This document shows, in pieces, positions 2,545 to 28,607 of a stretch of 64,000 nucleotides of DNA. Both the position numbers and the translations under genes were made by a program. Location of the stretch: contig JBDRLU010000042.1 of NCBI GenBank assembly GCA_043812795.1, forward strand, positions 13,903-77,902. The letters run 5' to 3'. The DNA is from Chloroflexota bacterium. GTDB lineage: Bacteria; Chloroflexota; Dehalococcoidia; Dehalococcoidales; UBA2162. Under the pieces are notes generated by a model. That model worked only from the letters and a program-made list of their open reading frames with translations, did not search any database and had not been told where the DNA came from. Each line of letters begins with the position of its first letter. Positions within the stretch are counted from its first letter, which is position 1.

Positions 2545-2559
2545 GTAGAAGGAGGTTGT

Positions 2560-6400: not shown

Positions 6401-7173
6401 GTTTCTCCATCGCAGTTGCGGGCAAGGGTGGGAGCGGAAAGACTTCGATAACGAGCCTGATTATCCGTTATTTGAAGAATAACCACCTCGACCCGATTTT
6501 AGCAATTGACGCTGACGCCAATGCTAACCTGGGGGATAGTCTCGGACTCACTATCAAGAAAACAGTCGGCTCGATAATCGCCAGTTTCAATACTGAAAAA
6601 ATAAGTATTCCTCCTGGATTGACCAAGGAGGCCTATCTTGAGTATAAATTAAACGAAGCTATCGTGGAAGAAAAAGGGCTTGACCTGCTGACTATGGGGC
6701 GGGGTGAAGGCGCCGAATGCTACTGCTACCCCAACCTGTTGATGAGAAAGTTTATCGACAGTCTTTCCGGAAATTACGCCTATGTGGTCATGGATAACGA
6801 AGCCGGGATGGAGCACCTGAGCCGGAGGACAACGCAGAACGTCGATGCTTTGCTCCTCATCTCGGACCATTCCGTCAAAGGTATCCGTACTATCGCCCGG
6901 ATAAGGGAACTTGTCGCCGAACTCAAGCTGGTCGTGGCACGGCAACTACCGATAATTAATTTCGTGCCGTCTCAACTCGACCCGTTAATCAGCCAGGAAC
7001 TGGCCAGATTAAGCATCGAGCCGGCGGCACTAATTCCACAAGACAAACTGGTCTATGAATGTGACCTCGAGCAAAAACCGCTGCTCGACTTACCCGATTC
7101 ATCAATAGCGGTCAAAGCGGTCGATGACCTGATGGCTGAAGTCCTGCAAAAGGAACACAGCTACAAAGGGTGA
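6397..7173 (+). CDS. cooC: second CooC/AcsF-type Ni-insertion ATPase
   Basis: AVAGKGGSGKT P-loop and a GAECYCYPN CxC motif. The TTG start overlaps the acsV stop. Confidence 0.8.
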   Translation: MSFSIAVAGKGGSGKTSITSLIIRYLKNNHLDPILAIDADANANLGDSLGLTIKKTVGSIIASFNTEKISIPPGLTKEAYLEYKLNEAIVEEKGLDLLTMGRGEGAECYCYPNLLMRKFIDSLSGNYAYVVMDNEAGMEHLSRRTTQNVDALLLISDHSVKGIRTIARIRELVAELKLVVARQLPIINFVPSQLDPLISQELARLSIEPAALIPQDKLVYECDLEQKPLLDLPDSSIAVKAVDDLMAEVLQKEHSYKG

Positions 7174-7212
7174 CAGGATAATTGTATTATCAAATAAGAG
7201 GGAGGTTTAACC

Positions 7213-8091: not shown

Positions 8092-8125
8092 TAAAACGAA
8101 TTACCGGTCTTAGGAGGATAAGACG

Positions 8126-9016: not shown

Positions 9017-9030
9017 AAAGGGAGGTAAAT

Positions 9031-9249
9031 ATGCCAGAGAAAATGGTGAAGAAAAAGGCTCCGGGACGGGGAGAGGTAGAGGTACTGGGCGAAACCTTCG
9101 AAGAAGGCAAACCCGAAGATAAGGACTTGGGCCGGTGGGAACAGAAGCTTGCTACCAGACAAGATAAACTGAAATACCTGGAAACGGCTGAAAGGTACTG
9201 GTACAGCAAGGAAGGGTTCGGCAGCGAAAAAAGAAAGAACCCGGCTTAA
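9031..9249 (+). CDS. small charged hypothetical protein (72 aa) inside the acs cluster
   Basis: It exactly fills the folD2-acsD gap and has a strong RBS (gggaggtaaatATG). Lys/Glu-rich. No family recognised. Confidence 0.5.
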   Translation: MPEKMVKKKAPGRGEVEVLGETFEEGKPEDKDLGRWEQKLATRQDKLKYLETAERYWYSKEGFGSEKRKNPA

Positions 9250-9257
9250 AGGAGGCG

Positions 9258-10208
9258 ATGATGGTATTTGAGATTCCGAAAACACTTTATAGCGGCAAAA
9301 TCAAAGAAATAGCTTTGGGCAAAGGCGATAAGTCAATCACGGTTGGCGGCGAGACAGCCTACCCGTTTTATCAGTTCGAAGGCAAAATGCCACACGCACC
9401 CAGAATCGCCATGGAAGTCTGGGACTCTTCGACTGAAGACTGGCCGGAAGCCGCCATCGAACCCTTTGCTGATGTCATCAACGACCCGGTTGCCTGGGCG
9501 AAGAAATGCGTCAGTAACTACGGGGCCGAGATGGTCTGCCTGCAATTAATCAGCACTGACCCCAATGGGATGAACCGTAGCCCTGAGGAAGCGGCGGCCG
9601 TAGCGAAGAAGGTAGCTGACGCTATCGACGTCCCTTTGATTGTCTGGGGCGTAGCTAACGTCGATAAAGATACCGAAGTGCTCAGAACGGTCGCTGAGGC
9701 CTGTCAGGGGAAAAACCTGATTCTAGGACCGGTTGAGGAAGCCGGCCACAAGAAGATAGGTGCTTCCGCCATTGCCTACCATCACACCATTGCAGCTTCG
9801 ACTCCCATTGACATTAACCTGGCCAAGCAACTGAATATCTTGCTCGGTAACCTGGGTGTGCCGGAAGGCCAGCTCATTATCGACCCGACCGTCAGCGGCA
9901 TCGGTTACGGCATCGAGTACGCTTTCTCGGTGATGGAAAGAGTTAGAATGGCCGCCCTGACCCAGCAGGACGATAAACTGCAGTTCCCGATAATTTGTAA
10001 CGTCTCGAAAGAGGTGTGGAAAACAAGAGAAGTAAAAATCCCCACCGCCGAAGACCCCAAGCTCGGCGATGTTAAGAAGAGGGGTATCTTAATGGAGGCC
10101 ATGTCGGCTACCGTGCTGCTTATCGCCGGCGCCGACGTTCTCATTATGAGACACCCCGAAGCAATAAAATTAGTGCGTGAAGTGATAGCCGATTTAACCG
10201 CTTCATAA
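9258..10208 (+). CDS. acsD: corrinoid/Fe-S protein small subunit (AcsD/CdhD-like)
   Basis: 316 aa TIM-barrel-like CFeSP delta subunit sequence. RBS aaaggagg. Sits beside acsA, acsB and acsC. Confidence 0.85.
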   Translation: MMVFEIPKTLYSGKIKEIALGKGDKSITVGGETAYPFYQFEGKMPHAPRIAMEVWDSSTEDWPEAAIEPFADVINDPVAWAKKCVSNYGAEMVCLQLISTDPNGMNRSPEEAAAVAKKVADAIDVPLIVWGVANVDKDTEVLRTVAEACQGKNLILGPVEEAGHKKIGASAIAYHHTIAASTPIDINLAKQLNILLGNLGVPEGQLIIDPTVSGIGYGIEYAFSVMERVRMAALTQQDDKLQFPIICNVSKEVWKTREVKIPTAEDPKLGDVKKRGILMEAMSATVLLIAGADVLIMRHPEAIKLVREVIADLTAS

Positions 10209-10231
10209 TAACGCAGAATCAGGAGGAAAAT

Positions 10232-12190
10232 ATGGCAGAGAAAGAGATTAAGAGTATTGACCAGGCTGCTCTTGAAATGATTGAAAAGGCGCAGAAGGAG
10301 AACGTACGAACGGTCTTTGACCGGGCTGAACAAATGAAGCCTTGCCCGATTGGTAGCGAGGGCAGTTGCTGTAGTAACTGCGCCATGGGCCCTTGCCGGG
10401 TGCCGCTGGCCAGGAATAAAGAAGAGACACCAGAAGAACACGCCAAGCGAACGGGCGTCTGTGGCGCTACCGCAGAGACAATCGCCGCCCGCAACTTCGT
10501 GAGGAAGATTGCCGCCGGAGCGGCAGCACACAGTGACCATGGCCGCAAAGTTGTCGAGGCTTTCAAATTAATGGCCGAAGGCAAGGCCAAAGACTTTGAG
10601 ATTAAAGACGAGCAGAAACTAATCAAACTGGCTCTTGACCTCGGCGTGGAGATTGGTGAACGCAGCAATCAGGAAATCGCCCTGGACATCGCCAAGATTT
10701 GCGAAGCTGAGTTTGGCAAGCAGGAAGGCGAACTTCTCTTTGGCCGACTGGCCCCTTTGAAGAGACAGGAAATCTGGCGGAAGCAGGGTGTGTACCCTCG
10801 TGGCATTGACCGCGAAGTCGTTGAACTGATGCATCGCACCCATATGGGTGTGGACCAGGACTACAAGAGCCTGCTGAAACAGGGTACACGCTGCGCGCTG
10901 GCAGACGGCTGGGGCGGCAGCATGATTGCCACTGAACTGCAGGATTGTATGTTCGGCACACCGTCTCCGGTTCTCAGCGAGATTAACCTGGGTGTGCTGA
11001 AAGAGGATATGGTCAACATCATTATCCACGGCCACGAACCGGCACTGGCTGAGATGCTGGCGGTGGTAAGCCAGGAGCCTGAACTTATCAAATATGCCGA
11101 ATCTAAGGGGGCTAAGGGTATCAACTTGGCCGGCATGTGCTGCACGGCGAATGAAATCTTGATGCGCCACGGCGTTCCCATTGCCGGTAATTTCCTGCAG
11201 CAGGAGTTAGCCATCGTCACCGGGGCTCTCGAAGCGATGGTAGTCGACGTGCAGTGCATCATGCAGGGACTGGCCGACGTTGCCAGGTGTTTTCACACCA
11301 AGCTTATCACGACTGATGAGCGTGCTCACATCACGGGGTCTACTTTCATGCGCTTCGACGAGCAAAATGCCAGAGAATCGGCTAAGGCCATTGTCAAAGC
11401 AGCTATTGACAACTTCCCTAAACGCGGTAAAAACGTCCGTATTCCCCAGGTGAAGACAACGCTGGTAGCCGGCTTCTCTCATGAGACTATTAACTACCTG
11501 CTAGGAGGACTTTTCCGTGCTTCATATCGGCCACTGAACGATAATATCATTAATGGCCGTATTCGTGGCCTCGCCGGGGTGGTCGGCTGCAACAACGCTC
11601 GTACCATACATGACGGAGACCATATCGCCATGATTAAAGAACTTTTAAAGAACGATGTGCTGGTGCTCACCACCGGCTGCGGCGCCATGGCGGCAGCCAA
11701 GGCGGGTCTCATGGTACCAGAAGCGGCGAAAGAGTACTGTGGTGCTGGGCTGGCTGAGGTTTGCGAAACGGTAGGTATTCCGCCAGTACTACACATGGGT
11801 TCCTGTGTCGACAATGCCCGTATCCTGATTGCGGCGACAGCCGTGGTTAAGGACGGCGGCCTGGGCGACGATATCAGCGACCTTCCCGCCGCTGGTGCTG
11901 CCCCCGAGTGGATGAGCGAGAAGGCCATCTCTATCGGCCAGTACTTCGTCGGCTCTGGTGTTTACACCGTATTTGGCACTACTTGGCCAACCGGCGGCAG
12001 CAAGGAACTCACCAAATACCTGTTTGAAGAATTCGAAGAACAGTATGGCGGCAAGTGGGACTTTGAGCCTGACCCCATCAAGGCGGCTCAAAAGATGATC
12101 GCCCACATAGACAAGAAGCGCAAGGCTCTGGGTATTGACAAAGCCAGAGAAAGAGTGCTTTACGATATGGCCATGCGTCGGGAGCTATAA
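10232..12190 (+). CDS. acsA: anaerobic carbon-monoxide dehydrogenase catalytic subunit
   Basis: 652 aa with an N-terminal CPIGSEGSCCSNCAMGPCR cluster motif and CooS-like sequence throughout. Confidence 0.9.
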   Translation: MAEKEIKSIDQAALEMIEKAQKENVRTVFDRAEQMKPCPIGSEGSCCSNCAMGPCRVPLARNKEETPEEHAKRTGVCGATAETIAARNFVRKIAAGAAAHSDHGRKVVEAFKLMAEGKAKDFEIKDEQKLIKLALDLGVEIGERSNQEIALDIAKICEAEFGKQEGELLFGRLAPLKRQEIWRKQGVYPRGIDREVVELMHRTHMGVDQDYKSLLKQGTRCALADGWGGSMIATELQDCMFGTPSPVLSEINLGVLKEDMVNIIIHGHEPALAEMLAVVSQEPELIKYAESKGAKGINLAGMCCTANEILMRHGVPIAGNFLQQELAIVTGALEAMVVDVQCIMQGLADVARCFHTKLITTDERAHITGSTFMRFDEQNARESAKAIVKAAIDNFPKRGKNVRIPQVKTTLVAGFSHETINYLLGGLFRASYRPLNDNIINGRIRGLAGVVGCNNARTIHDGDHIAMIKELLKNDVLVLTTGCGAMAAAKAGLMVPEAAKEYCGAGLAEVCETVGIPPVLHMGSCVDNARILIAATAVVKDGGLGDDISDLPAAGAAPEWMSEKAISIGQYFVGSGVYTVFGTTWPTGGSKELTKYLFEEFEEQYGGKWDFEPDPIKAAQKMIAHIDKKRKALGIDKARERVLYDMAMRREL

Positions 12191-12228
12191 CGCCATGATA
12201 AGAATACAAAGGGAGGGCTCAACGAGAG

Positions 12229-14436
12229 ATGTCTAAAATCATAGCTTCAGCCGTAATCAGAGGAGCTCACAAGATTGTTGACCGGGCTGAAAAAACATGG
12301 CAGCAGGCCATGGAAAAGCACGGGGCCAACGAAGCCGTCGGTTTTCCGAACACAGCTTATTACCTGCCTATCATCTACGGCATCCTGGGCGCCAAAGTCG
12401 AAAAACTGGGTGATATGGAACCGGTCCTGAAGAAATGCCGGTCGCTGTTGCCACCGCCGGTGAAGGAGTTACACCCGCTACCCTATCTGGCCCCCGCCCT
12501 CGATGCCGGCATGGCCACGCTGTGGGCCGAGGAAATAATCGAGGCTATCCGGTACCTGGAACAGCCGGACTTCTACGTCAGAGGTGAAGACGTCACCGAA
12601 GACAATATCTGGCTCGGGGCTGCCGATGATATCATCCTCCGTAAGAGGGGCATCGAATTCGTCGATGGCACCGCTCCGGGCTTTGCCGCTGTCCTCGGCG
12701 CCGCTCCGACCAAAGAGATTGCCGCCCAAATCGCTCAGGAACTTCAGCAGAAAAACCTGTATGTTTTTATGGGTGCCGAATATAACGGCAAGAGGTTCGC
12801 CGAACAACTGGTGGAGGCCGGCGTGCAAATTGGCTGGCCGACTCGCCTCGTTTCCTTTGGCCCCGATGTCAGCGCTGTGGTTTTCGCCATGGGTTTCGCC
12901 ACGCGGGCAGCTATGTCCTTCGGCGGTATCGAACCCGGCGATTTCCGTAAAATCCTGATCTATAATAAAGACCGCGTTTTTGCTTTCGCTTTACCACTCG
13001 GCTTTGTCAGCGATGAATGGTACGCTAATGCCGCCGGGGCTATCAACTGGGGCTTCCCGGTTATTGCCGATACTCCGATTCCCGAGGTCTTACCCAGCGG
13101 CATCTGCACCTACGAACATGTTGTCTCCAATATCCCGCACGACAGCATTGTCGCCAAGGCCGTTGAGGTACGCGGTCTGAAAGTCTCTGTATCCGAGATA
13201 CCCATTCCTGTCGCTTATGGTGCCGCTTTCGAAGGTGAAAGAGTCAGAGGTGAAGATATTTTCCTCGAGTGCGGCGGTGGCCGGACTGCCATGGTGGAAT
13301 GGGTCACCAGCAAGCGGATGGATGAAGTTGAAGACGGTAAAGTGGAAGTCATCGGGCCGGAGGTAACTGACGTTAAAGCCGGCTCCAGACTACCGTTCGC
13401 TATCACGGTGGAAGTGGCCGGGCGCCAGATGCAGGAAGACTACGAGCCTATTCTGGAACGGCAGATTCACCACCTCATCAACTACGCCCAGGGCGTCATG
13501 CACATCGGCCAGAGAGATATCGCCTGGATACGTGTCGGCAAGCAGGCCGTCGAAAAAGGCTTCAAACTGGAGCACATCGGTGTCATCCTGCATGCCAAGC
13601 TGCACCAGGACTTCGGCCGAATCTTCGATAAAATGCAGGTCAAACTTTATACCAAAGAAGAAGACGTCGCCAAGATTGTCGAACAAGCGAGACAAGTTTA
13701 CCAGACGAGGGACGCCCGTATCGAAGGGATGACCGACGAGAGCGTCGAGACCTATTACTCCTGCACGTTGTGCCAGTCTTTCGCTCCAACCCACGTTTGC
13801 AGCATCAGTCCGGAGCGGACGGGGCTTTGCGGTTCCTACAACTGGATGGACTGCAAAGCTTCCTACGAGATTAACCCCACCGGGCCCAACCAACCGATAG
13901 AAAAAGGCGAGGTCCTCGACCCCAAACTCGGACGGTGGAAGGGAACCGACGAATTTGTCTTCAAGGCCTCGCGCGGCAAAATCGACCATTACTACTTCTA
14001 CAGCATTGTTAATGACCCGATGACCACCTGCGGCTGCTGCGAGTGTATTGCCGCCGTCCTGCCGACGTGCAACGGCGTCATGACGGTCAACCGGGAATAC
14101 ACCGGTGAGACCCCCTGCGGCATGAAATTCACCACTCTCGCCGGGACTATCGGCGGTGGTCTGAGCACCCCCGGTTTTGTCGGTCACGGCAAATACAATC
14201 TCACCCAGAGGAAGTGGATTCTGGGTGATGGCGGTCTGTTACGGCTGGTCTGGATGCCCAAGATGCTCAAGGAAGAACTCCGTGAGCGACTTCTGGCCAG
14301 GGGTAAAGAACTGGGCGTGCCTGACCTTATCGATAAAATCGCCGATGAAACCGTCGGTACTACCGAGGAAGCGATTCTCCCCTTCCTGACCGAAAAAGGA
14401 CATCCCGCCCTCGGTATGGACCCAATTCTAGGCTAA
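12229..14436 (+). CDS. acsB: acetyl-CoA synthase (CODH/ACS alpha subunit, AcsB)
   Basis: 735 aa. Cys-Gly-Cys A-cluster motif (TTCGCCECI) and a typical AcsB N-terminus. Confidence 0.9.
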   Translation: MSKIIASAVIRGAHKIVDRAEKTWQQAMEKHGANEAVGFPNTAYYLPIIYGILGAKVEKLGDMEPVLKKCRSLLPPPVKELHPLPYLAPALDAGMATLWAEEIIEAIRYLEQPDFYVRGEDVTEDNIWLGAADDIILRKRGIEFVDGTAPGFAAVLGAAPTKEIAAQIAQELQQKNLYVFMGAEYNGKRFAEQLVEAGVQIGWPTRLVSFGPDVSAVVFAMGFATRAAMSFGGIEPGDFRKILIYNKDRVFAFALPLGFVSDEWYANAAGAINWGFPVIADTPIPEVLPSGICTYEHVVSNIPHDSIVAKAVEVRGLKVSVSEIPIPVAYGAAFEGERVRGEDIFLECGGGRTAMVEWVTSKRMDEVEDGKVEVIGPEVTDVKAGSRLPFAITVEVAGRQMQEDYEPILERQIHHLINYAQGVMHIGQRDIAWIRVGKQAVEKGFKLEHIGVILHAKLHQDFGRIFDKMQVKLYTKEEDVAKIVEQARQVYQTRDARIEGMTDESVETYYSCTLCQSFAPTHVCSISPERTGLCGSYNWMDCKASYEINPTGPNQPIEKGEVLDPKLGRWKGTDEFVFKASRGKIDHYYFYSIVNDPMTTCGCCECIAAVLPTCNGVMTVNREYTGETPCGMKFTTLAGTIGGGLSTPGFVGHGKYNLTQRKWILGDGGLLRLVWMPKMLKEELRERLLARGKELGVPDLIDKIADETVGTTEEAILPFLTEKGHPALGMDPILG

Positions 14437-14451
14437 AGAAGGAGTAACGAA

Positions 14452-15798
14452 ATGCCACTTACGGGAATACAGATTTTTAAGTTACTACCCAAGACCAACT
14501 GCGGTCAGTGCGGCGTACCGACCTGCCTCGCTTTCGCCATGAACCTGGCCGCAGGGAAAGCGGAACTGACCGCCTGCCCCCATGTCTCCGAGGAAGCCAA
14601 AGCCCAGTTACAGGAAGCTTCCGCCCCACCCATCCGGCCGATAACCATCGGCGCCAATGGCCGGACAGCAAAAGTAGGCGGCGAGACCGTCATGTTCCGT
14701 CACGAAAAAAGGTTCGAGAACCCGACCGGGATTGCCATGCTGATTAAGGACACGATGGATGCCGCTGAAGTGGACGCCCGCCTGGAAAAGTGTAAAACGC
14801 TCCAGTACGAACGGGTAGGCCTCACCCTGCGTCCGGAATTGGTAGCTGTCAAAGACGAAGCGGGGGATGCCAGCAAATTTGCCGCTTTGGTCGATAAGGT
14901 CAAACAAAATAGTGACTGCGGCATCATTCTGATGAGTAGTAATCCCGATATCCTGGCAGCAGGCGTGAAAGCCTGCGCCGACCGCAAACCACTGATATAT
15001 GCCGCAACCAAGGATAATCTGGACAAAGTGGCGGCGCTGGGCAAAGAGAGCAACTGTCCGGTAGCGGTCAAAGCCGCCAGCGTGGCCGAAGCCGCCGAGC
15101 TAACCGGCAAATTGGAGCAGGCCGGGGTCAAAGATATTGTCATTGATTCCGGGGCCAGAACGCTCCGCCAGGCTTTCGAAGACCAGGTTGTTATCCGGTC
15201 CTCGGCTTTAAACAAGAAGTTCCGCCCGCTCGGCTTTCCTACCATCGTTCTCCCCTGTGAGATGACCGATAACCCGTTGAAAGAAGCGGTAATGGCGGCG
15301 GCATTCGTAGCTAAATATGCCGGCATCCTCGTGCTCTCTGATTTTCAGGGCGAGAGTCTGTTCCCGCTGCTGGTGGAAAGGCTGAATATCTTCACTGACC
15401 CGCAGCGGCCGCTGGCTACCACCGCCGGGGTCTATCCCATCGGTACTCCCAACGAGAACTCACCGGTACTCCTGACCAGCAACTTCTCGCTGACCTACTT
15501 CCTGGTTTCAGGCTATATCGAGACCAGTAAAGTCTCTACCTACCTTCTCGTTATGGACACCGAGGGGCTTTCCGTCATGACCGCCTGGGCGGCGGGAAAG
15601 TTTGTTGCTGACGCTATCGCCCCCTTTGTTAAAAAATCTGAGGTTTGGGAAAAGGTCAAGCACAAGAAACTGGTCATTCCGGGATACGCCGCGGCCGAAA
15701 GCGGTGGCCTGGAAGAAGAGCTTGCCGGCTGGGAGATTTTGATTGGTCCCCGGGACGGCGCTCATATTCCGGCTTATCTCAAAACATGGAAAGCATAG
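14452..15798 (+). CDS. acsC: corrinoid/Fe-S protein large subunit (AcsC)
   Basis: 448 aa with the N-terminal 4Fe-4S motif KTNCGQCGVPTCLAFAM. Confidence 0.9.
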   Translation: MPLTGIQIFKLLPKTNCGQCGVPTCLAFAMNLAAGKAELTACPHVSEEAKAQLQEASAPPIRPITIGANGRTAKVGGETVMFRHEKRFENPTGIAMLIKDTMDAAEVDARLEKCKTLQYERVGLTLRPELVAVKDEAGDASKFAALVDKVKQNSDCGIILMSSNPDILAAGVKACADRKPLIYAATKDNLDKVAALGKESNCPVAVKAASVAEAAELTGKLEQAGVKDIVIDSGARTLRQAFEDQVVIRSSALNKKFRPLGFPTIVLPCEMTDNPLKEAVMAAAFVAKYAGILVLSDFQGESLFPLLVERLNIFTDPQRPLATTAGVYPIGTPNENSPVLLTSNFSLTYFLVSGYIETSKVSTYLLVMDTEGLSVMTAWAAGKFVADAIAPFVKKSEVWEKVKHKKLVIPGYAAAESGGLEEELAGWEILIGPRDGAHIPAYLKTWKA

Positions 15799-15808
15799 GG
15801 AGGAAAAG

Positions 15809-16687
15809 ATGATCCTTATCGGAGAAAGCATCAACATAATGTCCAAGACCATCGGCCCGGCAATGCGCGAGAGAAACGCCCAGCCGATTCAGGATATGGC
15901 TAAAGCCGAGACTGATGCCGGGATGGACTACCTCGATATCAATATCGGCCCGGCCCGGAAGGCCGGTGATGAATTGATGAAATGGATGGTCGAGACCGTG
16001 CAGCAGGTGACCAACTTGCCTTTGTCCCTCGATACCACCAATCCGGTCGCTATGGAAGCTGGTCTGCAGGTTCATAAGGGCAAAGCCCTCATGAACTCGA
16101 TTTCTTTACAGCCGGCCCGGATTGAAGCAGAATTGCCCATGGCCAAGAAATACAACGCCAACATGATTGGTCTGCTATGGGGCGTCGAAGGAATGCCGCG
16201 TGATGCCAACGAGCGGGCGGCCCTAGCCGTTGACCTCATTTACAAAGCGTCTGAAACAACTATCCCTAATGAAGATATCTGGATTGACCCCATCGCCAGC
16301 CCGATATCGGTCGAAATCAACCAGGTGAAATCATGCGTCGAGTTTATGAGTATGCTGGGTGAAATTGCTCCCGGCTGCAAATCGACCGTCGGTCTGTCCA
16401 ATATCTCCAACGGCACACCCGCTGAACTACGGCCCATCCTTAATCGGACTTACCTGATAATGCTGATGAAGTACGGCCTTTATTCCGCCATTGTTGACCC
16501 GCTGGACACCGAACTGGCGAAAATAGCCAAAGGGCAAATGCCCGAAATCGTTGACCTGGTATACCGCATGATGGATGGCGACAAACCCAACATTGCTACG
16601 CTCAGCAAAAAGGAAGCGGAATATGCGAAAACAGTCCGTGTCCTTACCGGAGAGACGCTCTATTCCCATTCCTGGCTTGAGATATAG
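15809..16687 (+). CDS. acsE: methyl-THF:corrinoid/Fe-S protein methyltransferase (AcsE)
   Basis: Pterin-binding domain sequence (MILIGESINIMSK..., LDINIGPA). Start moved to ATG 15809, which follows gggaggaaaag. Confidence 0.85.
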   Translation: MILIGESINIMSKTIGPAMRERNAQPIQDMAKAETDAGMDYLDINIGPARKAGDELMKWMVETVQQVTNLPLSLDTTNPVAMEAGLQVHKGKALMNSISLQPARIEAELPMAKKYNANMIGLLWGVEGMPRDANERAALAVDLIYKASETTIPNEDIWIDPIASPISVEINQVKSCVEFMSMLGEIAPGCKSTVGLSNISNGTPAELRPILNRTYLIMLMKYGLYSAIVDPLDTELAKIAKGQMPEIVDLVYRMMDGDKPNIATLSKKEAEYAKTVRVLTGETLYSHSWLEI

Positions 16688-16712
16688 AAGTTTTTGATAA
16701 AGGAGAGATGAG

Positions 16713-17609
16713 TTGACAGTTAAAGAGCTCCCTGTTGTCTGGTTGCAGACAGCCTGCTGTACCGGTTGCTCCGTTTCCCTCCTCAATTCAGCCAGCCCGA
16801 CCATTAAGAACATCCTTATTGACCAGATAATTCCCGGCGTCCACATCAATCTGCGTTTCCATGCCACGATAATGGCTGGCTCCGGCGAACCGGTGCTCCA
16901 GGTTCTTGAAGACACCGCCAAGAACAAGAGTGGGGAATACGTCCTTTGTGTTGAAGGCGCTATTCCGACCGCCACTGATGCCAGTTACGGAGTCCTGGGT
17001 GAGCGGGGTGGCAAGCCCGTGGGGATGCGGGAGAGGGTAGAGGAGCTTGCCCGGCAGGCGCTGGCCGTACTGGCCGTCGGCACTTGCGCTTCTTTCGGTG
17101 GTATCCCGGCCGCCGCCCCCAATCCCACCGGCTGCAAACCGGTACGCCAGATACTTGCTGAGAAAGGTATCAACAAACCCTTAATCAATCTTCCCGGCTG
17201 CCCACCCCATCCCGATTGGTTCGTGGGAACGGTGGCCAGTATCTTACTCAAAGGATTACCTCAAGCTTCCAAATTAGATGACAATTTGAGGCCCCTTGCC
17301 TTCTATGGAAAACTGATTCATGAGAACTGTCCCCGCCGCGCCTATTTCGATGAAGGTAAATTCGCCAAAAAGCCGGGCGAAGAAGGGTGCCTTTACGAAC
17401 TGGGCTGCAAAGGGCCGATTACTTACGCCGACTGCCCGCTGCGACGGTGGAACGGCGGGACGAACTGGGTTATCGGTGCCGGTGCACCCTGTAACGGTTG
17501 CACTCAGCCTGAATTCCCCGATGGGACGTCCCCCTTCTATCAGAAACTGGCCGAAATCACCGCACCCACTGTCGGCGCCTACTGGCAGGCGAGTAAGGAG
17601 ACGAAGTAG
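16713..17609 (+). CDS. [NiFe]-hydrogenase small subunit, no Tat signal
   Basis: 298 aa. VVWLQTACCTGCSVSLLN proximal-cluster motif and a C-terminal GCKGP...CNGCTQPEFPD motif. No RRxF leader. TTG start after aaaggagag. Confidence 0.85.
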   Translation: MTVKELPVVWLQTACCTGCSVSLLNSASPTIKNILIDQIIPGVHINLRFHATIMAGSGEPVLQVLEDTAKNKSGEYVLCVEGAIPTATDASYGVLGERGGKPVGMRERVEELARQALAVLAVGTCASFGGIPAAAPNPTGCKPVRQILAEKGINKPLINLPGCPPHPDWFVGTVASILLKGLPQASKLDDNLRPLAFYGKLIHENCPRRAYFDEGKFAKKPGEEGCLYELGCKGPITYADCPLRRWNGGTNWVIGAGAPCNGCTQPEFPDGTSPFYQKLAEITAPTVGAYWQASKETK

Positions 17610-19123
17610 TGAGCAAAATAATTGTTGACCCGGTAACGAGAATTGAAGGTCATCTCAAAATCGAGACGGTCGTGGAAGGCGGGGAAGTTAAGGACGCGCA
17701 GAGCACGGGCAATCTTTTCCGTGGGCTGGAACTTATCCTCAGAGGTCGAGACCCGCGGGACGCCCAGATAATAACCCAGCGCATTTGCGGCGTTTGTCCC
17801 CAATCTCACGGCATCGCTGCCTCGCTTAACCTCGATAGTGCTTTCGGTATCAGCGATAAGATACCGGACAACGCTCGCATCATACGTAACCTCATCCAGG
17901 GGTCCCACGTGGCCCAGGACCACGTCCTCCATTTCTACCACCTGGCCGCTCTCGATTACGTTGATGTTACCGATGTGGCCAAATATGAGGGCAATAGTTC
18001 CGATTTGAATTCGGTCAAAGATTTTATTATGCGCGGCGAACTGGGACCGTTCGTACCACGTTACGAAGGTGACTACCGCCTGCCACCCAAGGTCAATCAG
18101 GAAGCGAGCGCTCATTATTTACAGGCCCTCGAAATTAGGCGCATGGGGCACGAAATGGTCAGTATTTTCAGCGGCAAAATTCCCCACAGCGTGGGCGTGA
18201 TACCCGGTGGCGTCACCACCGATATTACGGTTGATAAGATAGCCGCCTTCTTATGGAAACTCAGAAAATTGCAGGACTTCATCAATAATGTCTATATTCC
18301 CGATGTCTTAGCCGTAGCCGGTGCTTACCCCGATTATTGCGAAATCGGTGCCGGTTGTAAGAATTACCTCTCTTACGGTGCTTATGACTTGAACGGTACC
18401 GACCCGGACTATACCAAACGCAAACGGCTTTTTAGCCAGGGTGTTGTCTCCGCCGACCTGAAAGCTCAGCCGCTGGACATCAACAAGATAAACGAGCATG
18501 TTAAGCATTCCTGGTACGAGGACTCTTCCTCGGGTCGTCATCCTTCGCATGGTGACACCAGGCCTGAATATGGTAAAGCCGGTGCTTATTCGTGGGTCAA
18601 GGCGCCGCGCTACGATGGCAAGGTCTGTGAAGTCGGCCCGCTGTCCAGAGTGCTGGCGACCTATGCCAGCGGTGACCCTGAAATGAAAAAAATGGTCGAT
18701 TCGTCCCTCGCTCAGCTCAAGGCACCGCCTTCGGCGCTCTTTTCCGTAATGGGCCGCCACCTGGCGCGCGCCCTGTCCGCCAAATTTATCGCCGATAACC
18801 TGGATAAATGGCTGCTGGAGTTGAAGCCGGGAGAACCTACCTTTGTTGACTATACCATCCCGGAAGAGGCAACGGGCTTTGGCCTGACCGATGCTGCCCG
18901 CGGCGCTCTCGGCCACTGGATTGAGATAAAAGATAAGAAGATTGCCAACTACCAGTGCGTGGTCCCGACCACCTGGAATGCTTCGCCCCGGGACGATAAC
19001 GGCAACCCCGGCCCGATAGAACAGGCCATCATCGGCACCAAAATAAAGGACAAGGATAACCCGTTTGAAATTGTACGCATCGTCCGTTCTTTTGACCCCT
19101 GTCTCGCCTGCGCAATCCATTAG
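17609..19123 (+). CDS. [NiFe]-hydrogenase large subunit ending at the conserved His (no C-terminal extension)
   Basis: 504 aa with PVTRIEGH and RICGVCPQSH. The C-terminus is DPCLACAIH followed directly by TAG. The GTG start overlaps the small-subunit stop. Confidence 0.9.
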   Translation: MSKIIVDPVTRIEGHLKIETVVEGGEVKDAQSTGNLFRGLELILRGRDPRDAQIITQRICGVCPQSHGIAASLNLDSAFGISDKIPDNARIIRNLIQGSHVAQDHVLHFYHLAALDYVDVTDVAKYEGNSSDLNSVKDFIMRGELGPFVPRYEGDYRLPPKVNQEASAHYLQALEIRRMGHEMVSIFSGKIPHSVGVIPGGVTTDITVDKIAAFLWKLRKLQDFINNVYIPDVLAVAGAYPDYCEIGAGCKNYLSYGAYDLNGTDPDYTKRKRLFSQGVVSADLKAQPLDINKINEHVKHSWYEDSSSGRHPSHGDTRPEYGKAGAYSWVKAPRYDGKVCEVGPLSRVLATYASGDPEMKKMVDSSLAQLKAPPSALFSVMGRHLARALSAKFIADNLDKWLLELKPGEPTFVDYTIPEEATGFGLTDAARGALGHWIEIKDKKIANYQCVVPTTWNASPRDDNGNPGPIEQAIIGTKIKDKDNPFEIVRIVRSFDPCLACAIH

Positions 19124-19151
19124 TTTCCGGGATAAGAGTTAAGGAGGGAAA

Positions 19152-19817
19152 ATGATACTTTCAAGACAGAAACCCTGGGAGGAAATTCTGGGCTATTTAG
19201 ACGGTCAGAATAACATCTTCATCGTCGGCTGCAATGGCTGTGCTCAGGCTTCGGGCACGGGCGGACCGGTACAGGTCGCCGAAATGAAAACCAAACTGGA
19301 AGAAGCTGGCAAAAAAGTCACCGGCAGTACGGTAGTCGATTTCCTCTGCCAGAAAGCACTGGTAGCGTCAAAATTAAGCCCCAGAAGCGAACAAATCGGG
19401 GCCGCCGATTCGCTACTGGTAATGACCTGCGGTATTGGCGTGCAGGCTACCGCAGCTGTTGTCACTAAAGTCTGCCATCCCGCTTGCGATACATTAAGCC
19501 TGGGCGGCAGCCGGGGCGAATGGCAGGGCAGCGAAAGATGCTTGGAATGCGGCGAATGCTTGCTGGAATATACCGGAGGAATATGCCCGCTGACCGCCTG
19601 CACCAAAAGCCTGATTAACGGCCAGTGCGGCGGGGCCAAGGACGGGAAATGTGAACTTGACCCCGGTAAAGATTGCGGCTGGGAACTGATTTATAACCGG
19701 CTCAAAAGATTAAACCAGCTCGACAAGCTAAGCCAACTGGTCACACCCAAGAACTACGCCAAGATGATGCCCGAGGTCAAGACGATGGCTACCTCGATGT
19801 GGGCACTGGAAAGATAA
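19152..19817 (+). CDS. metV: MetV (methylene-THF reductase accessory Cys-rich subunit)
   Basis: 221 aa and Cys-rich (CLECGECLL, CPLTACTKSLINGQCGG). Immediately upstream of metF. Confidence 0.8.
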   Translation: MILSRQKPWEEILGYLDGQNNIFIVGCNGCAQASGTGGPVQVAEMKTKLEEAGKKVTGSTVVDFLCQKALVASKLSPRSEQIGAADSLLVMTCGIGVQATAAVVTKVCHPACDTLSLGGSRGEWQGSERCLECGECLLEYTGGICPLTACTKSLINGQCGGAKDGKCELDPGKDCGWELIYNRLKRLNQLDKLSQLVTPKNYAKMMPEVKTMATSMWALER

Positions 19818-19832
19818 AAGGAGATAGTGCAA

Positions 19833-20708
19833 ATGAGTTTGAAATCAGCTATTGAAGCCGGAAAATTTGTGGTTACTGCCGAAGTGGGCCCTCTGAAAGG
19901 GACTGACGTTACCGAACTTAATGAGGTGGGTGAACTGCTCAAGGGACGAGTGGACGCCGCTAACGCCACCGACCAGCAAAGCTCAGTAATGAGGCTGGGT
20001 TCTCTGGTAACCTGCCACCTGCTTAAGCAAAAAGGTCTTGACCCCGTGCTCCAGATGACTTGCCGCGACCGGAACCGCCTCGCCTTACAATCCGATTTGC
20101 TCAGTGCGGCGGTTCTGGGCATCAATAACGTACTGGCACTGACCGGCGATTTGCCGTCGCTGGGCGACCACCCTCAGGCCAAACAAGTCTATGACCTGGA
20201 TTCGGTTGGCTTATTGTGGGCCATCGGCCAGCTAAACGAAGGGAAGGATATGGCCGGTAACGCACTCCAGGGAAAGCCAGACTTCTTTCCTGGGGCCGTC
20301 GTCAACCCCGGTATCAATACCGAAGCCGGCTTTGAACTCCAGCTTGCCAAGATGGAAAAGAAAATCAATACCGGCGCCAGATTCTTTCAGACTCAGGCGA
20401 TTTACGAGCCAGAGAAATTCGCCAAATTCATGAAAAGGGCCGCCGAGTTTAAAGTGCCTGTCCTGGCTGGCATCATACCCCTCAAATCAGTTGGTATGGC
20501 CCGCTTCATGAACAAGAACGTGGCTGGTGTCTTTGTTCCCGAGCCGCTAATCCAGCAAATGAGTGCCGCCAAAGACAAGACCCAGACCGGGCTACAGATT
20601 GCCGCCGACCTGATTAAACAGCTCAAGGACATGTGCCAGGGCGTACATATTATGGCCATCGGCTGGGAAAAGAAAGTACCTCAGATTCTTGACTCAGCCG
20701 GGCTTTAG
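19833..20708 (+). CDS. metF: methylenetetrahydrofolate reductase (acetogen-type MetF)
   Basis: MetF-like TIM barrel sequence (VTAEVGPLKG, QMTCRDRN, LALTGD). ATG 19833 is better spaced from aaggag than GTG 19827. Confidence 0.85.
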   Translation: MSLKSAIEAGKFVVTAEVGPLKGTDVTELNEVGELLKGRVDAANATDQQSSVMRLGSLVTCHLLKQKGLDPVLQMTCRDRNRLALQSDLLSAAVLGINNVLALTGDLPSLGDHPQAKQVYDLDSVGLLWAIGQLNEGKDMAGNALQGKPDFFPGAVVNPGINTEAGFELQLAKMEKKINTGARFFQTQAIYEPEKFAKFMKRAAEFKVPVLAGIIPLKSVGMARFMNKNVAGVFVPEPLIQQMSAAKDKTQTGLQIAADLIKQLKDMCQGVHIMAIGWEKKVPQILDSAGL

Positions 20709-20713
20709 CGGAC

Positions 20714-21373
20714 TTGTTTCCGGTGCAAGATAAACATCTGGCTGTACCTGGGTATAAGGACTACGAATATGCTTACGGGCAATCTTATCAGGTGGCCCGC
20801 GAGCAGTTCGCCAGGATTGATATTGAGCAGCAGTGCCGCAATAGCGATGCTCAATATCAATCAGCCGGTACCAAGGAAATCACCATCCGCTATTTAAACC
20901 AGGCCTATCGCATCACCCTGCCCGATATTGTTGTCTCCTTGGTAAATGGCGCGGCCACTATCCCGATAAGAGATAAACTGCTCATCCTCCACTATTTCAT
21001 TACCGCCAAGGGCACCCCCCCGACCAACAAGCTCATTACTTTTAAGGAGTTACCCGAAGGCACCGTCTATTTCCCGACCTTCGCCAAGCGGACGATTAAG
21101 CCTCTACTGGATAATTTCAGCCAGGAGCCGAGCCAACTGGTATCGGCTGGTGAGAAACTGGGGGGGCATCAGGCCAACTACGGTGATGCTGCTGTTACTT
21201 TCACCCCCTTCAGCCGGGTGCCGATAACGTTCATCTTGTGGCGTGGTGATGACGAATTCGCTCCGCAAGCCAGTGTCGGCTTCGACGCTAATATTCGAGA
21301 TTACTTACCTACCGAGGATATCATTGTCCTCTGTGAGACCATCGTCTGGCGGCTGGTCAGGTCTCTCAAATAA
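20714..21373 (+). CDS. DUF3786-like protein (family recalled as common beside acs genes)
   Basis: 219 aa and the last gene of the operon. The family assignment is from memory of sequence character only. Confidence 0.45.
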   Translation: MFPVQDKHLAVPGYKDYEYAYGQSYQVAREQFARIDIEQQCRNSDAQYQSAGTKEITIRYLNQAYRITLPDIVVSLVNGAATIPIRDKLLILHYFITAKGTPPTNKLITFKELPEGTVYFPTFAKRTIKPLLDNFSQEPSQLVSAGEKLGGHQANYGDAAVTFTPFSRVPITFILWRGDDEFAPQASVGFDANIRDYLPTEDIIVLCETIVWRLVRSLK

Positions 21374-21406
21374 TCAGTGAGTTGCTTTTTGGTCAGTGTT
21401 CCAAAA

Positions 21407-21513
21407 TGTCATTCTGAAGGAGCAAAGCGACTGAAGAATCCGTTTTCCCTCGAGTAAAACACGGGTTCTGCGCGGAGTTTACACTGAGCGTGGCGAATGT
21501 GCTCAGAATGACC
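21407..21513. repeat. ~105 bp element with terminal inverted repeats (gtcattctga ... tcagaatgac), family B
   Basis: Arms at 21408-21417 and 21503-21512. Same architecture as 55421-55514. Confidence 0.5.
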
Positions 21514-21549
21514 GACCATTGTTTCAGACAGTCCCGAGATGAGGATAGG

Positions 21550-22209
21550 GTGCCAACACGTAAAAGTAAACTACCGGAGATAAGTGGAGATGACCGGAAG
21601 CCGATAAAGGTTACGGCTATCGTTCTCGCTGGCGGTAAATATCTGCGCCTGGGCAAAAACAAAGCACTTGAAGTTATCGGCGGTACGAGCCTGATTGAAC
21701 GTGTTATCGAAAGGCTGCAGCCTTTCGCCAGCCAGATTTTAATCGTAACTTCGCCCGAGCTTGTGACGTTCCCTGTTTCTGAAAAAGCAAAAGCCCTCAT
21801 TGACCTTTATCCCGACAAAGGCCCACTGGCCGGTATTTACACCGGTCTGCAAGCAGCCCGCACGTCATATAGCCTTGTCGTCGCCTGTGATATGCCTTTT
21901 CTCAACCAAAGACTGCTGGGCTATATGATTGGACTGGCGCCTGGTTTCGATGCCGTAGTTCCCCGTTTAGGTGAGCGGATGATGGAGCCGCTTCATGCTG
22001 TCTATGCCCGGAGCTGCCGGGACAAGATGAAAGCCCGGCTGGAAAATGACCAGTTGAGCCTCAACTCTTTTCTCGGTACCGTGAAAGTAAGATACGTTGA
22101 ACGGGACGAATGCCAGCGCTTCGACCCACAGCTTCTGTCCTTCTTTAATATCAATTATCCGGCCGACCTGGACAAAGCGATTACGTTAGCCGTCCAAGAA
22201 AAGAAATAA
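21550..22209 (+). CDS. mobA: molybdenum cofactor guanylyltransferase (MobA)
   Basis: AIVLAGGKYLRLGKNKAL nucleotide-binding N-terminus. The 5' part of ORF 21490.. overlaps repeat B, so GTG 21550 is preferred. Start uncertain. Confidence 0.7.
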   Translation: MPTRKSKLPEISGDDRKPIKVTAIVLAGGKYLRLGKNKALEVIGGTSLIERVIERLQPFASQILIVTSPELVTFPVSEKAKALIDLYPDKGPLAGIYTGLQAARTSYSLVVACDMPFLNQRLLGYMIGLAPGFDAVVPRLGERMMEPLHAVYARSCRDKMKARLENDQLSLNSFLGTVKVRYVERDECQRFDPQLLSFFNINYPADLDKAITLAVQEKK

Positions 22210-22294
22210 CGGCAACTTGACCTGGAATATGTGTTCCCAACGAACTTGATATTCCATACCTAATCAATTACCATTAAGAATAGTTTCTCTCTAA

Positions 22295-22978
22295 GTGATG
22301 GAAAACACATCGTTCTTAGTTGCTTTTGGGGCCGGGCTGCTCTCCTTTGTCTCGCCCTGCATTTTACCGGTAATACCGGTGTACCTGGGTAGCCTTTGCG
22401 GCCCGGAAGTGTACCAGCCCCTGACGAGAAAAATTCGCTGGTCTATGTTTCTCCATTCCCTTGTTTTCGTCGCCGGGTTTTCTTTGATTTTCATTTTGCT
22501 CGGTGCAGTGGCCGGACTTACCGGCTTTACCATCAACCTGCACTCGAGGCTGACTCGCCAGATAGCCGGCAGCTTACTCATAATCTTCGGCCTGCTAATG
22601 ATAGCGAGCCTGAAAATACCCTGGCTAAATTATGAGAGACGGCTGTCCCCATCTCTGGGCACTACAACCGGTTATTTCCGTTCTTTTCTGACGGGAAGCG
22701 TATTCTGCCTCGCCTGGACGCCCTGTGTTGGCCCCCTATTGGGTGGCATCCTGGCCCTGGCGGTGAATTCAGCCACAGCCTGGCACGGTACCTATTTACT
22801 GGCCATATACTCCCTCGGTTTAGGGCTGCCTTTCATCATCGCCGGCATTGCTTTCGACGTAATCACGCCCGTCCTGAGACGCATCCGAAGTTATTCGACC
22901 GCCATTTATCTTTTCAGCAGTGTTCTGCTCATCACCATGGGCGTCCTGACGCTGCTCAACAAGCTAATTTGGCTTTAG
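22295..22978 (+). CDS. ccdA: CcdA/DsbD-family thiol-disulfide electron transporter
   Basis: 227 aa polytopic protein with SPCILP and WTPCVGP motifs. Confidence 0.8.
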   Translation: MMENTSFLVAFGAGLLSFVSPCILPVIPVYLGSLCGPEVYQPLTRKIRWSMFLHSLVFVAGFSLIFILLGAVAGLTGFTINLHSRLTRQIAGSLLIIFGLLMIASLKIPWLNYERRLSPSLGTTTGYFRSFLTGSVFCLAWTPCVGPLLGGILALAVNSATAWHGTYLLAIYSLGLGLPFIIAGIAFDVITPVLRRIRSYSTAIYLFSSVLLITMGVLTLLNKLIWL

Positions 22979-23008
22979 TCTCAGCTTTAAGGTAAAATAA
23001 AGAAAGAC

Positions 23009-28033: not shown

Positions 28034-28606
28034 TCACAGCTTTGAAGCCTTAAGGCGTTTGGGTTTAAGGACGATGGCTGGTTTTGTTCTTTTTGAATAG
28101 GTGAAACCTTCGGCGCTGAGAATGTGACCATACTTGGCTTCAAGCTCAGATAATATACCCGCATCGAGTGCCTTGGTGGGGCAGGCCTCAACACAGACCG
28201 GTTTTTTCCCCTCCTCCCACCTATCGAGACAGAAGTCACATTTGTGCATCTTGGCGGCAGTCTCGGGTCCAAATTGCGGGGCTTTATAGGGGCACACCGT
28301 AAGACACTCGGTTCTGCAAGTATCTTTACCAAGACAGGCCTGAGTATCCACGACTACTATACCGTCTTCATCCCTTTTGGAAATAGCGTGAGTTGGGCAT
28401 GCCTTGACACAAATGGGGTCCAAGCAGTGGTAACAAGGCATCGCCATATAGCTGACGAATACATCTGGATAACTGCCCTTTTCATTGTAGAGCATTCTTA
28501 TCCAGTTCTCAGGTCCGGCAGGTATGTCATGCCAGTCTTTGCACGCTATCCTACAGGCACCACAGCCGGTACAGCGGGATTGGTCGAAATAGAAACCAAC
28601 CTGCAT
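28034..28606 (-). CDS. DmsB-like four-cluster Fe-S subunit (beta-1)
   Basis: 190 aa with CTGCGACRIAC, CYHCLDPICVKACP and CDFC...CVEACP. The third motif is atypical: CLGKDTCRTECLTVCP. Confidence 0.85.
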   Translation of the reverse strand: MQVGFYFDQSRCTGCGACRIACKDWHDIPAGPENWIRMLYNEKGSYPDVFVSYMAMPCYHCLDPICVKACPTHAISKRDEDGIVVVDTQACLGKDTCRTECLTVCPYKAPQFGPETAAKMHKCDFCLDRWEEGKKPVCVEACPTKALDAGILSELEAKYGHILSAEGFTYSKRTKPAIVLKPKRLKASKL

Positions 28607-28607
28607 T

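Follow-up and report, generated by a model that had tools for sequence, protein, structure and literature searches.

The methylene-tetrahydrofolate (methylene-THF) reductases of acetogens have been divided into type I (MetF), type II (MetVF), type III (RnfC2-MetVF), and type IV (HdrABC-MvhD-MetVF) (PMC8760232). Types II to IV share a core of MetF (PF02219) and MetV (PF12225), to which a modular input subunit is joined via MetV; purified MetVF enzymes have no site for NAD(P)H, and what donates electrons to them physiologically is described there as unresolved and as an energetic dilemma (PMC8760232). Here, we analyze a 64,000-nucleotide (nt) stretch of DNA from a Chloroflexota bacterium of the order Dehalococcoidales (assembly GCA_043812795.1, contig JBDRLU010000042.1, positions 13,903 to 77,902), hereafter the window, in which metV and metF are preceded by the genes of a two-subunit [NiFe] hydrogenase, hydS and hydL. 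The acetogen classification lists no type with such an input module (PMC8760232), for which the donor would therefore be H2 itself, not ferredoxin or NADH. We put the probability that HydS, HydL, MetV, and MetF form, or at least work as, one cytoplasmic H2:methylene-THF oxidoreductase at roughly 0.55, judging from sequence comparisons.

The enzymes nearest to HydSL in sequence are the periplasmic [NiFe] and [NiFeSe] hydrogenases of Group 1a/1b in Desulfovibrio and Desulfomicrobium (1frf, 1yrq, 1cc1, 4kl8, 3ze6). It shares with them the L1 and L2 motifs, three clusters with a His ligand at the distal one, the proton-gate Glu, and an open gas channel. Unlike those enzymes, it has no twin-arginine translocation (Tat) leader, no C-terminal extension in the window's subclade, and no cytochrome c3 or b partner gene, is encoded together with MetVF, and carries clade-specific insertions in HydS; unlike the NiFeSe enzymes, its Ni ligand is Cys rather than Sec, and Val stands in place of the fourth medial Cys. 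The MvhAGD-HdrABC complex of methanogens (Group 3c) is, like the proposed enzyme, a cytoplasmic [NiFe] hydrogenase wired through iron-sulfur (FeS) clusters to a reductase of a C1 pathway, but its hydrogenase is of another group, and it uses an MvhD adaptor and a bifurcating HdrA flavin, neither of which is found in the window. In Acetobacterium woodii, the hydrogen-dependent CO2 reductase (HDCR) reportedly couples a hydrogenase directly to a Wood-Ljungdahl enzyme, with H2 as the immediate reductant and without a soluble carrier; it is said to join an [FeFe] hydrogenase to formate dehydrogenase at the first step of the methyl branch, whereas HydSL-MetVF would act at the last.

The overall reaction proposed here, H2-dependent methylene-THF reduction, has been shown biochemically with membranes of Sporomusa ovata (PMC9430772). 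There, a Tat-exported, periplasmic, cytochrome b-linked hydrogenase feeds quinone and then HdrABC-MvhD-MetVF in an energy-conserving route (PMC9430772), whereas the route via HydSL-MetVF would be wholly cytoplasmic, with no membrane component. The Group 2b H2 sensors (HoxBC/HupUV) are likewise cytoplasmic and have an extension-less large subunit, but they belong to another group, have a narrowed gas channel (Ile/Phe), and work with a histidine-kinase partner. Papers on the pathway in Chloroflexi, Actinobacteria, and Acetothermia report Hdr-MvhD-linked MetVF or Group 3 hydrogenases, not hydSL-metVF, and the main text of a preprint dedicated to a survey of Chloroflexi hydrogenases does not mention the unit. 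A first-pass annotation of this DNA, made from the sequence alone, knew of no description of the arrangement, and full-text searches turned up none, with paywalled work and supplements outside their scope.

Gene organization of the hydSL-metVF unit

In the window, hydS, hydL, metV, and metF stand at the end of a densely packed Wood-Ljungdahl gene string that spans 1684-21373 on a single strand (+):

1684-15798, + strand: cooC, fhs, RACo, cooC/acsF-like ATPase, folD, folD, acsD, cooS/acsA, acsB, and acsC (Pfam and list of open reading frames)
15809-16687, + strand: acsE, methyl-THF:corrinoid methyltransferase (PF00809), the last acs gene ahead of the module
16713-17609, + strand: hydS, [NiFe] hydrogenase small subunit, 298 aa, TTG start (PF01058, PF14720)
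17609-19123, + strand: hydL, [NiFe] hydrogenase large subunit, 504 aa, GTG start (PF00374, E=3.6e-167)
19152-19817, + strand: metV, Cys-rich FeS/Zn subunit of a MetVF-type methylene-THF reductase, 221 aa (PF12225, E=2.6e-31)
19827-20708, + strand: metF, catalytic flavoprotein subunit of methylene-THF reductase, 293 aa (PF02219, E=3.9e-39; matches to methylene-THF reductases in PDB)
20714-21373, + strand: DUF3786 gene at the operon end (PF12654, E=9.6e-54)

The spacers are 25 nt between acsE and hydS, 28 nt between hydL and metV, and 9 nt between metV and metF, and the hydL GTG shares 1 nt with the hydS TAG. On re-reading the coordinates, the two outer spacings and the start-stop overlap reported in the first-pass annotation hold; its picture of hydSL as inserted between acsE and metVF had to be given up, since hydS-hydL-metV-metF is a conserved four-gene unit that here lies at the end of the acs operon. 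The GC content of the module (0.53-0.54) is the same as that of its neighbors, and a horizontal insertion of the module was rejected on this composition. A scan of positions 8000-23000 gave promoter and terminator counts close to shuffle expectation, and neither the acsE/hydS nor the hydL/metV junction has a terminator-like site or a convincing promoter.

The Pfam scan of the window took in about 50 open reading frames (ORFs) of at least 150 aa and was accompanied by tblastn queries with endopeptidase, HdrA, HdrB, NuoF, NuoG, and GltD-MvhD. Within this scope, hyp, endopeptidase, Hdr, MvhD, RnfC, and NuoF genes are all absent from the 64 kb, in agreement with the first reading of the operon and window as free of hdrABC, mvhD, rnfC-like, hyp, and endopeptidase genes; the signatures of type III (rnfC2) and type IV (hdrCBA, mvhD) reductases are likewise missing from the window. 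The neighbors of hydSL are acsE and metV, with no cytochrome (b, c3) or HupX-type gene adjoining, and there is no kinase or response regulator of the HoxJ/HoxA type in the operon or among the window ORFs of at least 150 aa.

Linkage of hydSL to metVF across genomes

A scan of one genome per GTDB species yielded 80 loci (L001-L080), onto which the window proteins were mapped. Linkage was counted among loci with a HydL at least 55% identical to that of the window and enough downstream sequence. All 62 evaluable loci (62/62) have metV no more than 1.3 kb downstream of hydL, with metF nearly always next; among distant relatives (HydL at most 52% identical), none of the five evaluable loci has this linkage. 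A Tat leader is absent in all of the approximately 60 MetVF-linked relatives with a readable N-terminus, and classic RRxF Tat leaders occur in the unlinked relatives L073, L074, L076, L079, and L080 (at most 52% identity). On these sequences, loss of the Tat leader appears as a trait of the MetVF-linked clade, with the position of L069 uncertain.

The genome loci nearest to the window are Dehalococcoidales and Dehalococcoidia metagenome-assembled genomes (MAGs). By record title, the linked bins are mostly Dehalococcoidia and other Chloroflexota and extend to Actinomycetota (L014, contig of 1.2 Mb; L033, contig of 0.33 Mb), a single bin of Acidobacteriota, Desulfobacterota (titled "delta proteobacterium" or Desulfobacteraceae, with L061 a 5-Mb chromosome), Thermodesulfovibrionales/"Nitrospira" (Nitrospirota), and Planctomycetota, six phyla in all. 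Large contigs with the module include JBGLNK010000001.1 (2.3 Mb) and OY970341.1 (5.0 Mb). PMC5736913 states that no other Chloroflexi clade has metV, which the loci found here contradict.

The genomic context of the unit varies. It ends the acs operon in the window and in L001-L005, L008, and L011, all of which have the acsE-hydS junction; it follows folD in the Actinomycetota and Thermodesulfovibrionales loci and has unrelated neighbors elsewhere. Two MetVF subtypes occupy the linked position, with MetF sharing either 57-77% or 42-47% identity with that of the window. The synteny of acsE-hydSL-metVF that the first-pass annotation had wished to see compared in relatives is thus kept in 62/62 loci as far as the hydSL-metV adjacency goes, and down to the acsE junction in the acs-operon versions just named. 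Its proposal of a dedicated H2-oxidizing input module for MetVF gains support from this adjacency and the coincident loss of the Tat leader, from the survival of the linkage through operon relocation and exchange of MetVF subtype, and from the presence of second metVF pairs next to other input genes. Altogether, as judged from these genomes, the hydSL-metVF linkage is real, ancient, and widespread in uncultured anaerobes.

Those second metVF pairs, found in L060, L061, L062, and L063, adjoin a GltD/HdrA-like or GltD-MvhD(FlpD) gene. The regions concerned are L063 7543-11153, L061 315-6566, and L060 12842-17316; the GltD/HdrA-like protein of L063 has 675 aa and an MvhD (FlpD) domain, and its L061 counterpart has 1406 aa. 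A metVF pair beside such a gene would represent a variant of the NAD(P)H type that exists alongside the one of the H2 type. Together with fusions of MetV to RnfC (see below), these pairs suggest that MetVF accepts interchangeable input modules.

Several other genes were noted around the unit. A DUF3786 gene follows metF in L002, L003, L004, L008, and L011 and is kept solely in the acs-operon versions; after it, among the nearest relatives of this kind, come NuoE/NuoF/NuoG-like genes in L002 (11866-14996), L003 (9434-12458), L004 (9392-13563), and L008 (12784-14121), and mobA instead in the window. In some relatives from Desulfobacterota and Chloroflexi, a histidine kinase with a cNMP-binding domain is encoded between metV and metF, namely in L057 (10762-11916), L061 (10728-11900), and L062 (about 10728-11876), and two response regulators follow metF in L063, a Thermodesulfovibrionales MAG (5560-6397).

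Class and catalytic residues of the hydrogenase

HydL has the L1 motif RICGVCPQSH and the L2 motif DPCLACAIH, and it scores 716.8 bits against NF033181 (cut-off 600). Its best PDB match is D. fructosovorans 1frf_L, over the full length (E=1e-136, 460 bits), and the best matches of HydS are the NiFeSe small subunits 4kl8_S and 1cc1_S (E ~3e-83, 283 bits). The hydrogenase group was assigned by ranking the PDB and NCBIfam scores, together with a neighbor-joining tree without support values. The PDB scores of HydL rank as follows:

Group 1b (Desulfovibrio fructosovorans, vulgaris, and gigas): 460-393 bits
Group 1a, NiFeSe enzymes: 443-424 bits
Groups 1c-1e: 396-315 bits
Group 2a, Huc: 221 bits
Group 1h: 170 bits
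Group 3 enzymes, N-terminus only: about 88-109 bits

Of the Group 1 features, the L1/L2 motifs, the three-cluster small subunit with its His distal ligand, and the NiFe_hyd_SSU_C domain are present, and the Tat leader, the C-terminal extension, and a respiratory partner gene beside the enzyme are missing from the window. By score, HydSL classes unambiguously as a Group 1 (1a/1b-like, "periplasmic-type") [NiFe] hydrogenase. A Group 3c Mvh-type enzyme was rejected: matches to MvhA (5odc_F, 9sw2_F) reach about 100 bits and are limited to the N-terminal 120 residues, and there is no MvhD. A selenocysteine enzyme was also rejected, as all loci have a Cys codon in the DPC motif. The first-pass annotation did not recognize a relocalized "periplasmic-type" Group 1 hydrogenase. 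It had held that placement in a well-characterized group, together with an adjacency not conserved in relatives, would speak against its proposal; the score ranking does place the enzyme in such a group, and the 62 linked loci out of 62 decisively contradict the second part.

All four Ni-ligand Cys of HydL are invariant in the 66 clade members compared (66/66), as are the proton-gate Glu (D. fructosovorans E25) and the Arg of the RGALGHW motif. The Val and Leu of the open gas channel (D. fructosovorans V74 and L122; numbering checked on the alignment) are retained in 66/66 as well. In H2 sensors, these two positions are Ile and Phe, and the gas channel is narrowed. Based on this conservation and on the score ranking, HydSL is predicted to be a catalytic enzyme under purifying selection, and neither a sensor nor a Group 3 or 4 hydrogenase.

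Leader, clusters, and surface of HydS

The TTG start of hydS at 16713 lies 7 nt downstream of GGAGAG. No Tat leader can be encoded ahead of it because an in-frame TAA (16698-16700) sits merely four codons upstream and acsE ends at 16687, which leaves no room. The alignments agree with this N-terminus: the counterpart of HydS residue 4 is residue 6 in the mature small subunit of Desulfomicrobium baculatum and position 38 in the NiFeSe small-subunit profile of NCBIfam, a point past the leader. The upstream stop and the start of the alignment at mature residue 6 bear out the initial observation that HydS has no twin-arginine leader, and the enzyme is therefore predicted to be cytoplasmic.

The cluster ligands of HydS are C16, C19, C125, and C163 (proximal), C241, C260, and C263 (medial), and H203, C206, C226, and C232 (distal); not one of the 11 varies among the clade members compared (63/63). 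At the fourth medial position (window 17468-17500, HydS ~253-263), the crown group, which includes the window, has Val (NWV), and the basal, protease-containing members (loci L042-L069) have Cys (NWC, as in NiFeSe enzymes). The clade is therefore predicted to have passed from a [4Fe-4S] to a [3Fe-4S]-type medial cluster.

HydS also has a clade-specific insertion of six residues (PGVH) with an invariant His44, which the Tat-bearing outgroup does not have, and a C-terminal tail of about 20 residues (QKLxDxxxPxIGAYW) that Tat-bearing relatives lack. The insertion and tail may serve as a new docking surface. Because the tail is short and not hydrophobic, the idea that it anchors HydS in a membrane was rejected.

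The C-terminus of HydL

HydL stops at the His of DPCLACAIH, with the TAG at 19121-19123, exactly as first read along with the RICGVCPQSH motif. The same terminus is common to eight independent assemblies of one subclade (L011, L014, L015, L018, L024, L033, L034, and L037), and an assembly truncation was rejected because the His terminus is a trait common to that subclade. The 120 protein clusters listed as closest each share at least 78% identity with the window HydL; about 96 of them have lengths of 496-505 aa, of which the two checked both end at the His; four HydL proteins of 519 aa were checked, and all have an extension.

Most linked HydL proteins, including ones 75-81% identical to that of the window, carry a typical 15-aa extension (e.g., VVTPKGRDLGQFRVV). 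A gene for a HybD/HoxM-like maturation endopeptidase lies between hydL and metV in the deeper-branching loci L042, L044, L046-L050, L052-L058, L060-L062, L068, and L069; in L051 and L025, it is found downstream of metF instead, and in the Tat-bearing outgroups, it likewise comes after hydL. In L042 (~2900-3250) and L052 (~9540-9800), the stretch that separates hydL from the endopeptidase gene contains repetitive sequence, probably an intergenic repeat element, whose translation shows "CHSEGA..." over and over. In the neighbor-joining tree (without support values), the extension-less HydL sequences form one subclade, composed of the window and L011, L037, L014, L015, L018, L024, L033, and L034, and therefore fit a single loss. 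On this evidence, the missing extension is secondary, a trait of the window's subclade and not of the family; the first-pass annotation was right about the feature itself and gave it too much weight. The likely order of events, as far as the sequences tell, runs from a Tat-exported ancestor to Tat loss and operon joining with metVF, then to loss of the operon protease, and finally to loss of the extension, with the window as the likely most reduced end of the series.

Natural large subunits without an extension are listed solely in Groups 2b, 2d, 4c, 4e, and 4g in PMC7294309, which also reports that an engineered extension-less Group 1 enzyme is still able to mature. Active HupXSL of Dehalococcoides has been obtained in E. 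coli (PMC6258894). An alternative, already considered in the first-pass annotation, is that HydSL is a regulatory H2 sensor co-opted into the pathway operon: the terminus of HydL resembles that of Groups 2b/2d (PMC7294309), and the cNMP-binding histidine kinase between metV and metF in a few distant relatives (L057, L061, and L062), as well as the regulators after metF in L063, would fit. We find this hardly credible. HydL scores 460 bits against the Group 1 enzyme 1frf but 221 against Group 2a Huc; the Val and Leu of the gas channel, the Glu of the proton gate, and every ligand are kept without exception (66/66); relatives 75-81% identical have a cleavable extension, and deeper ones have their own endopeptidase. 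In the window, moreover, no kinase or regulator adjoins the enzyme, and its genes are tightly spaced or overlapping with enzyme genes.

MetV and its fusions

MetV has 12 invariant Cys in a 4+8 pattern (27, 30, 66, and 93; 130, 133, 136, 145, 150, 159, 167, and 175), kept in 69/69 sequences, and this Cys set is consistent with an FeS relay. In a HMMER search of 1.84 billion representatives, MetV was found fused to MetF, to RnfC, to a histidine kinase, and to a Rieske domain. P0263 is a MetV-HisKA/HATPase fusion protein, and this kinase fusion, taken with the kinases and regulators near metV in L057 and L061-L063, hints at redox or H2-linked signaling attached to MetV. P0345 (385 aa) is a natural MetV-Rieske [2Fe-2S] fusion, apparently a further, undescribed variant of the MetV input module. 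A phmmer search found no solved relative of MetV in PDB. In an AlphaFold2 model of the MetV monomer, the N-terminal beta-alpha-beta domain alone is moderately confident, and Foldseek of the model against PDB returned generic Rossmann-like matches only, none with E <=0.001.

Proposed reaction and its alternatives

In the proposed H2:methylene-THF oxidoreductase, H2 would be split at the NiFe site of HydL, and the electrons would run through the proximal, medial, and distal clusters of HydS. From the surface-exposed, His-ligated distal cluster, they would reach the FeS centers of MetV and then the flavin of MetF, along a path and across subunit contacts that we infer. The MetF flavin would reduce methylene-THF to methyl-THF, and the adjacent AcsE would pass the methyl group to the corrinoid protein. 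HydSL would be found in place of RnfC2 (type III) or HdrABC-MvhD (type IV). As to its origin, we propose that a Tat-exported Group 1a/1b enzyme was kept in the cytoplasm by loss of its leader and recruited as an electron-input module for MetVF; the window's subclade would then have been simplified further, with no operon endopeptidase, no extension, and Val at the fourth medial position. Most likely, the reaction is simple and does not bifurcate, since the sole flavin, that of MetF, delivers a two-electron hydride to the folate. The net direction is most likely H2 consumption, although it would be reversible in principle.

Besides the linkage and the loss of the Tat leader, this reading draws on the intact functional residues of the Group 1 enzyme, the close spacing and start-stop overlap of the genes, the 12 invariant Cys of MetV, the insertion and tail peculiar to HydS of this clade, and the lack of an NAD(P)H site in purified MetVF. 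Pairwise-distance correlations also speak for it: 0.88 for HydS-MetV and 0.87 for HydL-MetV, next to 0.93 for HydS-HydL and 0.91 for MetV-MetF as known partners. Several points weigh against this reading. The potentials of H+/H2 and methylene-THF/methyl-THF are -414 mV and -200 mV, and by arithmetic from these established values, electron flow from H2 to methylene-THF dissipates about 41 kJ/mol at standard state, a loss that, with no evident coupling site, looks wasteful for an energy-limited anaerobe. At 1-10 Pa H2, the same arithmetic gives a yield of about 13-19 kJ/mol, like that of an NADH-dependent reductase. The pairwise-distance correlations are uncorrected for shared phylogeny. The best 150 MetV representatives in the HMMER search include no fusion of MetV to a hydrogenase subunit, and the MetV monomer model, built from a 27-sequence alignment, is poor (mean pLDDT 49.8). 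NuoEF-like or Hdr-like genes lie nearby in some relatives (L002-L004, L008, and L036), and larger assemblies are therefore possible there. Finally, every carrier found is an uncultured MAG.

The points on MetV also bear on a second explanation, which we regard as distinctly less probable though the strongest competitor: HydSL would be co-regulated with MetVF but not physically coupled to it, acting as a free cytoplasmic uptake hydrogenase that reduces a soluble carrier (ferredoxin, flavodoxin, or rubredoxin), which in turn reduces a type II MetVF. Purified type II MetVF takes reduced ferredoxin in vitro (PMC8760232), the missing hydrogenase-MetV fusion would be expected, and the MetV Cys pattern is the same in MetV paralogs that are not linked to a hydrogenase. 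However, neither the window nor the conserved four-gene core has a carrier gene alongside the module, and an adjacency of 62/62 across the labeled phyla, through relocations and subtype exchange, is stronger than usual for co-regulation. It is also general knowledge that the distal cluster of Group 1 enzymes is normally the docking site of a dedicated partner and that, at environmental pressure, H2 reduces low-potential ferredoxin poorly.

In a third explanation, the same complex runs in reverse, oxidizing methyl-THF and evolving H2 for a reverse Wood-Ljungdahl pathway (acetate or methyl oxidation), with a partner keeping H2 very low. Methyl-THF oxidation is the thermodynamic bottleneck of syntrophic acetate oxidation (PMC10689502), and many of the carriers are subsurface or sediment Dehalococcoidia. 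The small subunits nearest to HydS are NiFeSe-like, and NiFeSe enzymes are generally known as good H2 producers. This direction seems unlikely to us as the net one: it costs about +41 kJ/mol at standard state and, by the same arithmetic, needs about 1 Pa H2 or less and a high methyl-THF/methylene-THF ratio, and the fhs, two folD, full acs set, RACo, and CooC of the operon equally fit reductive operation. If it were true, syntrophic acetate oxidation would have no need for reverse electron transport.

The apparent waste of energy would disappear altogether if the four subunits were a minimal flavin-based bifurcating enzyme that, as in MvhAGD-HdrABC, sends H2 electrons to methylene-THF (exergonic) and to ferredoxin (endergonic). 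This is thermodynamically allowed, the mean acceptor potential of about -350 mV lying above -414 mV, and bifurcation by MetVF-type enzymes is debated (PMC8760232). Yet the conserved core has no HdrA-like or NuoF-like flavoprotein and no second flavin site, and type II MetVF oxidizes ferredoxin without a second acceptor (PMC8760232). Hydride transfer by MetF would also provide no one-electron high-potential branch of the kind found in known bifurcating flavins. Because the MetF flavin, which delivers a hydride, is the only one in the core, we consider bifurcation quite improbable. If it did occur, uncultured Dehalococcoidia and other subsurface anaerobes would obtain low-potential reductant for carbon monoxide dehydrogenase and CO2 reduction, and would net energy as well, with no need for Hdr, Nfn, or HydABC.

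Other features of the window

Upstream of the hydSL-metVF unit, the Wood-Ljungdahl operon contains tandem folD paralogs for methylene-THF dehydrogenase/cyclohydrolase (7213-8091 and 8126-9016, + strand), whose cofactor specificities may not be the same. Beyond the operon lies a mobA-like gene (21490-22209). Three catalytic genes for molybdopterin oxidoreductases lie at 28034-33114 (- strand) and 37053-39842 (+ strand), and two of the three adjoin genes for four-cluster ferredoxin-like (Fer4_11) subunits.

A low-GC patch at 46000-48600 (GC 0.43 versus about 0.53) could be a small mobile or acquired segment. It encodes a 300-aa ORF (46048-46950) that matches no Pfam family, along with two short ORFs side by side (48079-48535) that by eye resemble HicAB. 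The window also has a bacterial class A RNase P RNA (59236-59605, + strand, 314.8 bits), and no tRNA genes were found anywhere in its 64 kb. The priA gene is present as two overlapping ORFs in different frames (61402-62163 and 62118-63827, - strand), one with the N-terminal part (3'BD, DEAD, and Zn-ribbon domains) and the other with the C-terminal part (Helicase_C and PriA_C); the split is a frameshift, either genuine or an assembly error.

Implications

Altogether, the sequence evidence suggests an apparently undescribed cytoplasmic, MetVF-coupled subclade of Group 1 [NiFe] hydrogenases, which would equally be a fifth, H2-dependent type of MetVF. The electron donor of MetVF is a long-standing open problem of acetogen bioenergetics, and hydS-hydL-metV-metF would give it a concrete fifth answer, H2. 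The clade also indicates that Group 1 enzymes of the "periplasmic type" can take up work in the cytoplasm alongside a new partner, and it offers a natural series from an extension with an operon protease, through an extension alone, to no extension. This abundant clade would be mis-assigned by any metagenome survey that labels Group 1 hydrogenases "respiratory uptake", and the use of H2 in the methyl branch by subsurface Chloroflexota would need rethinking.

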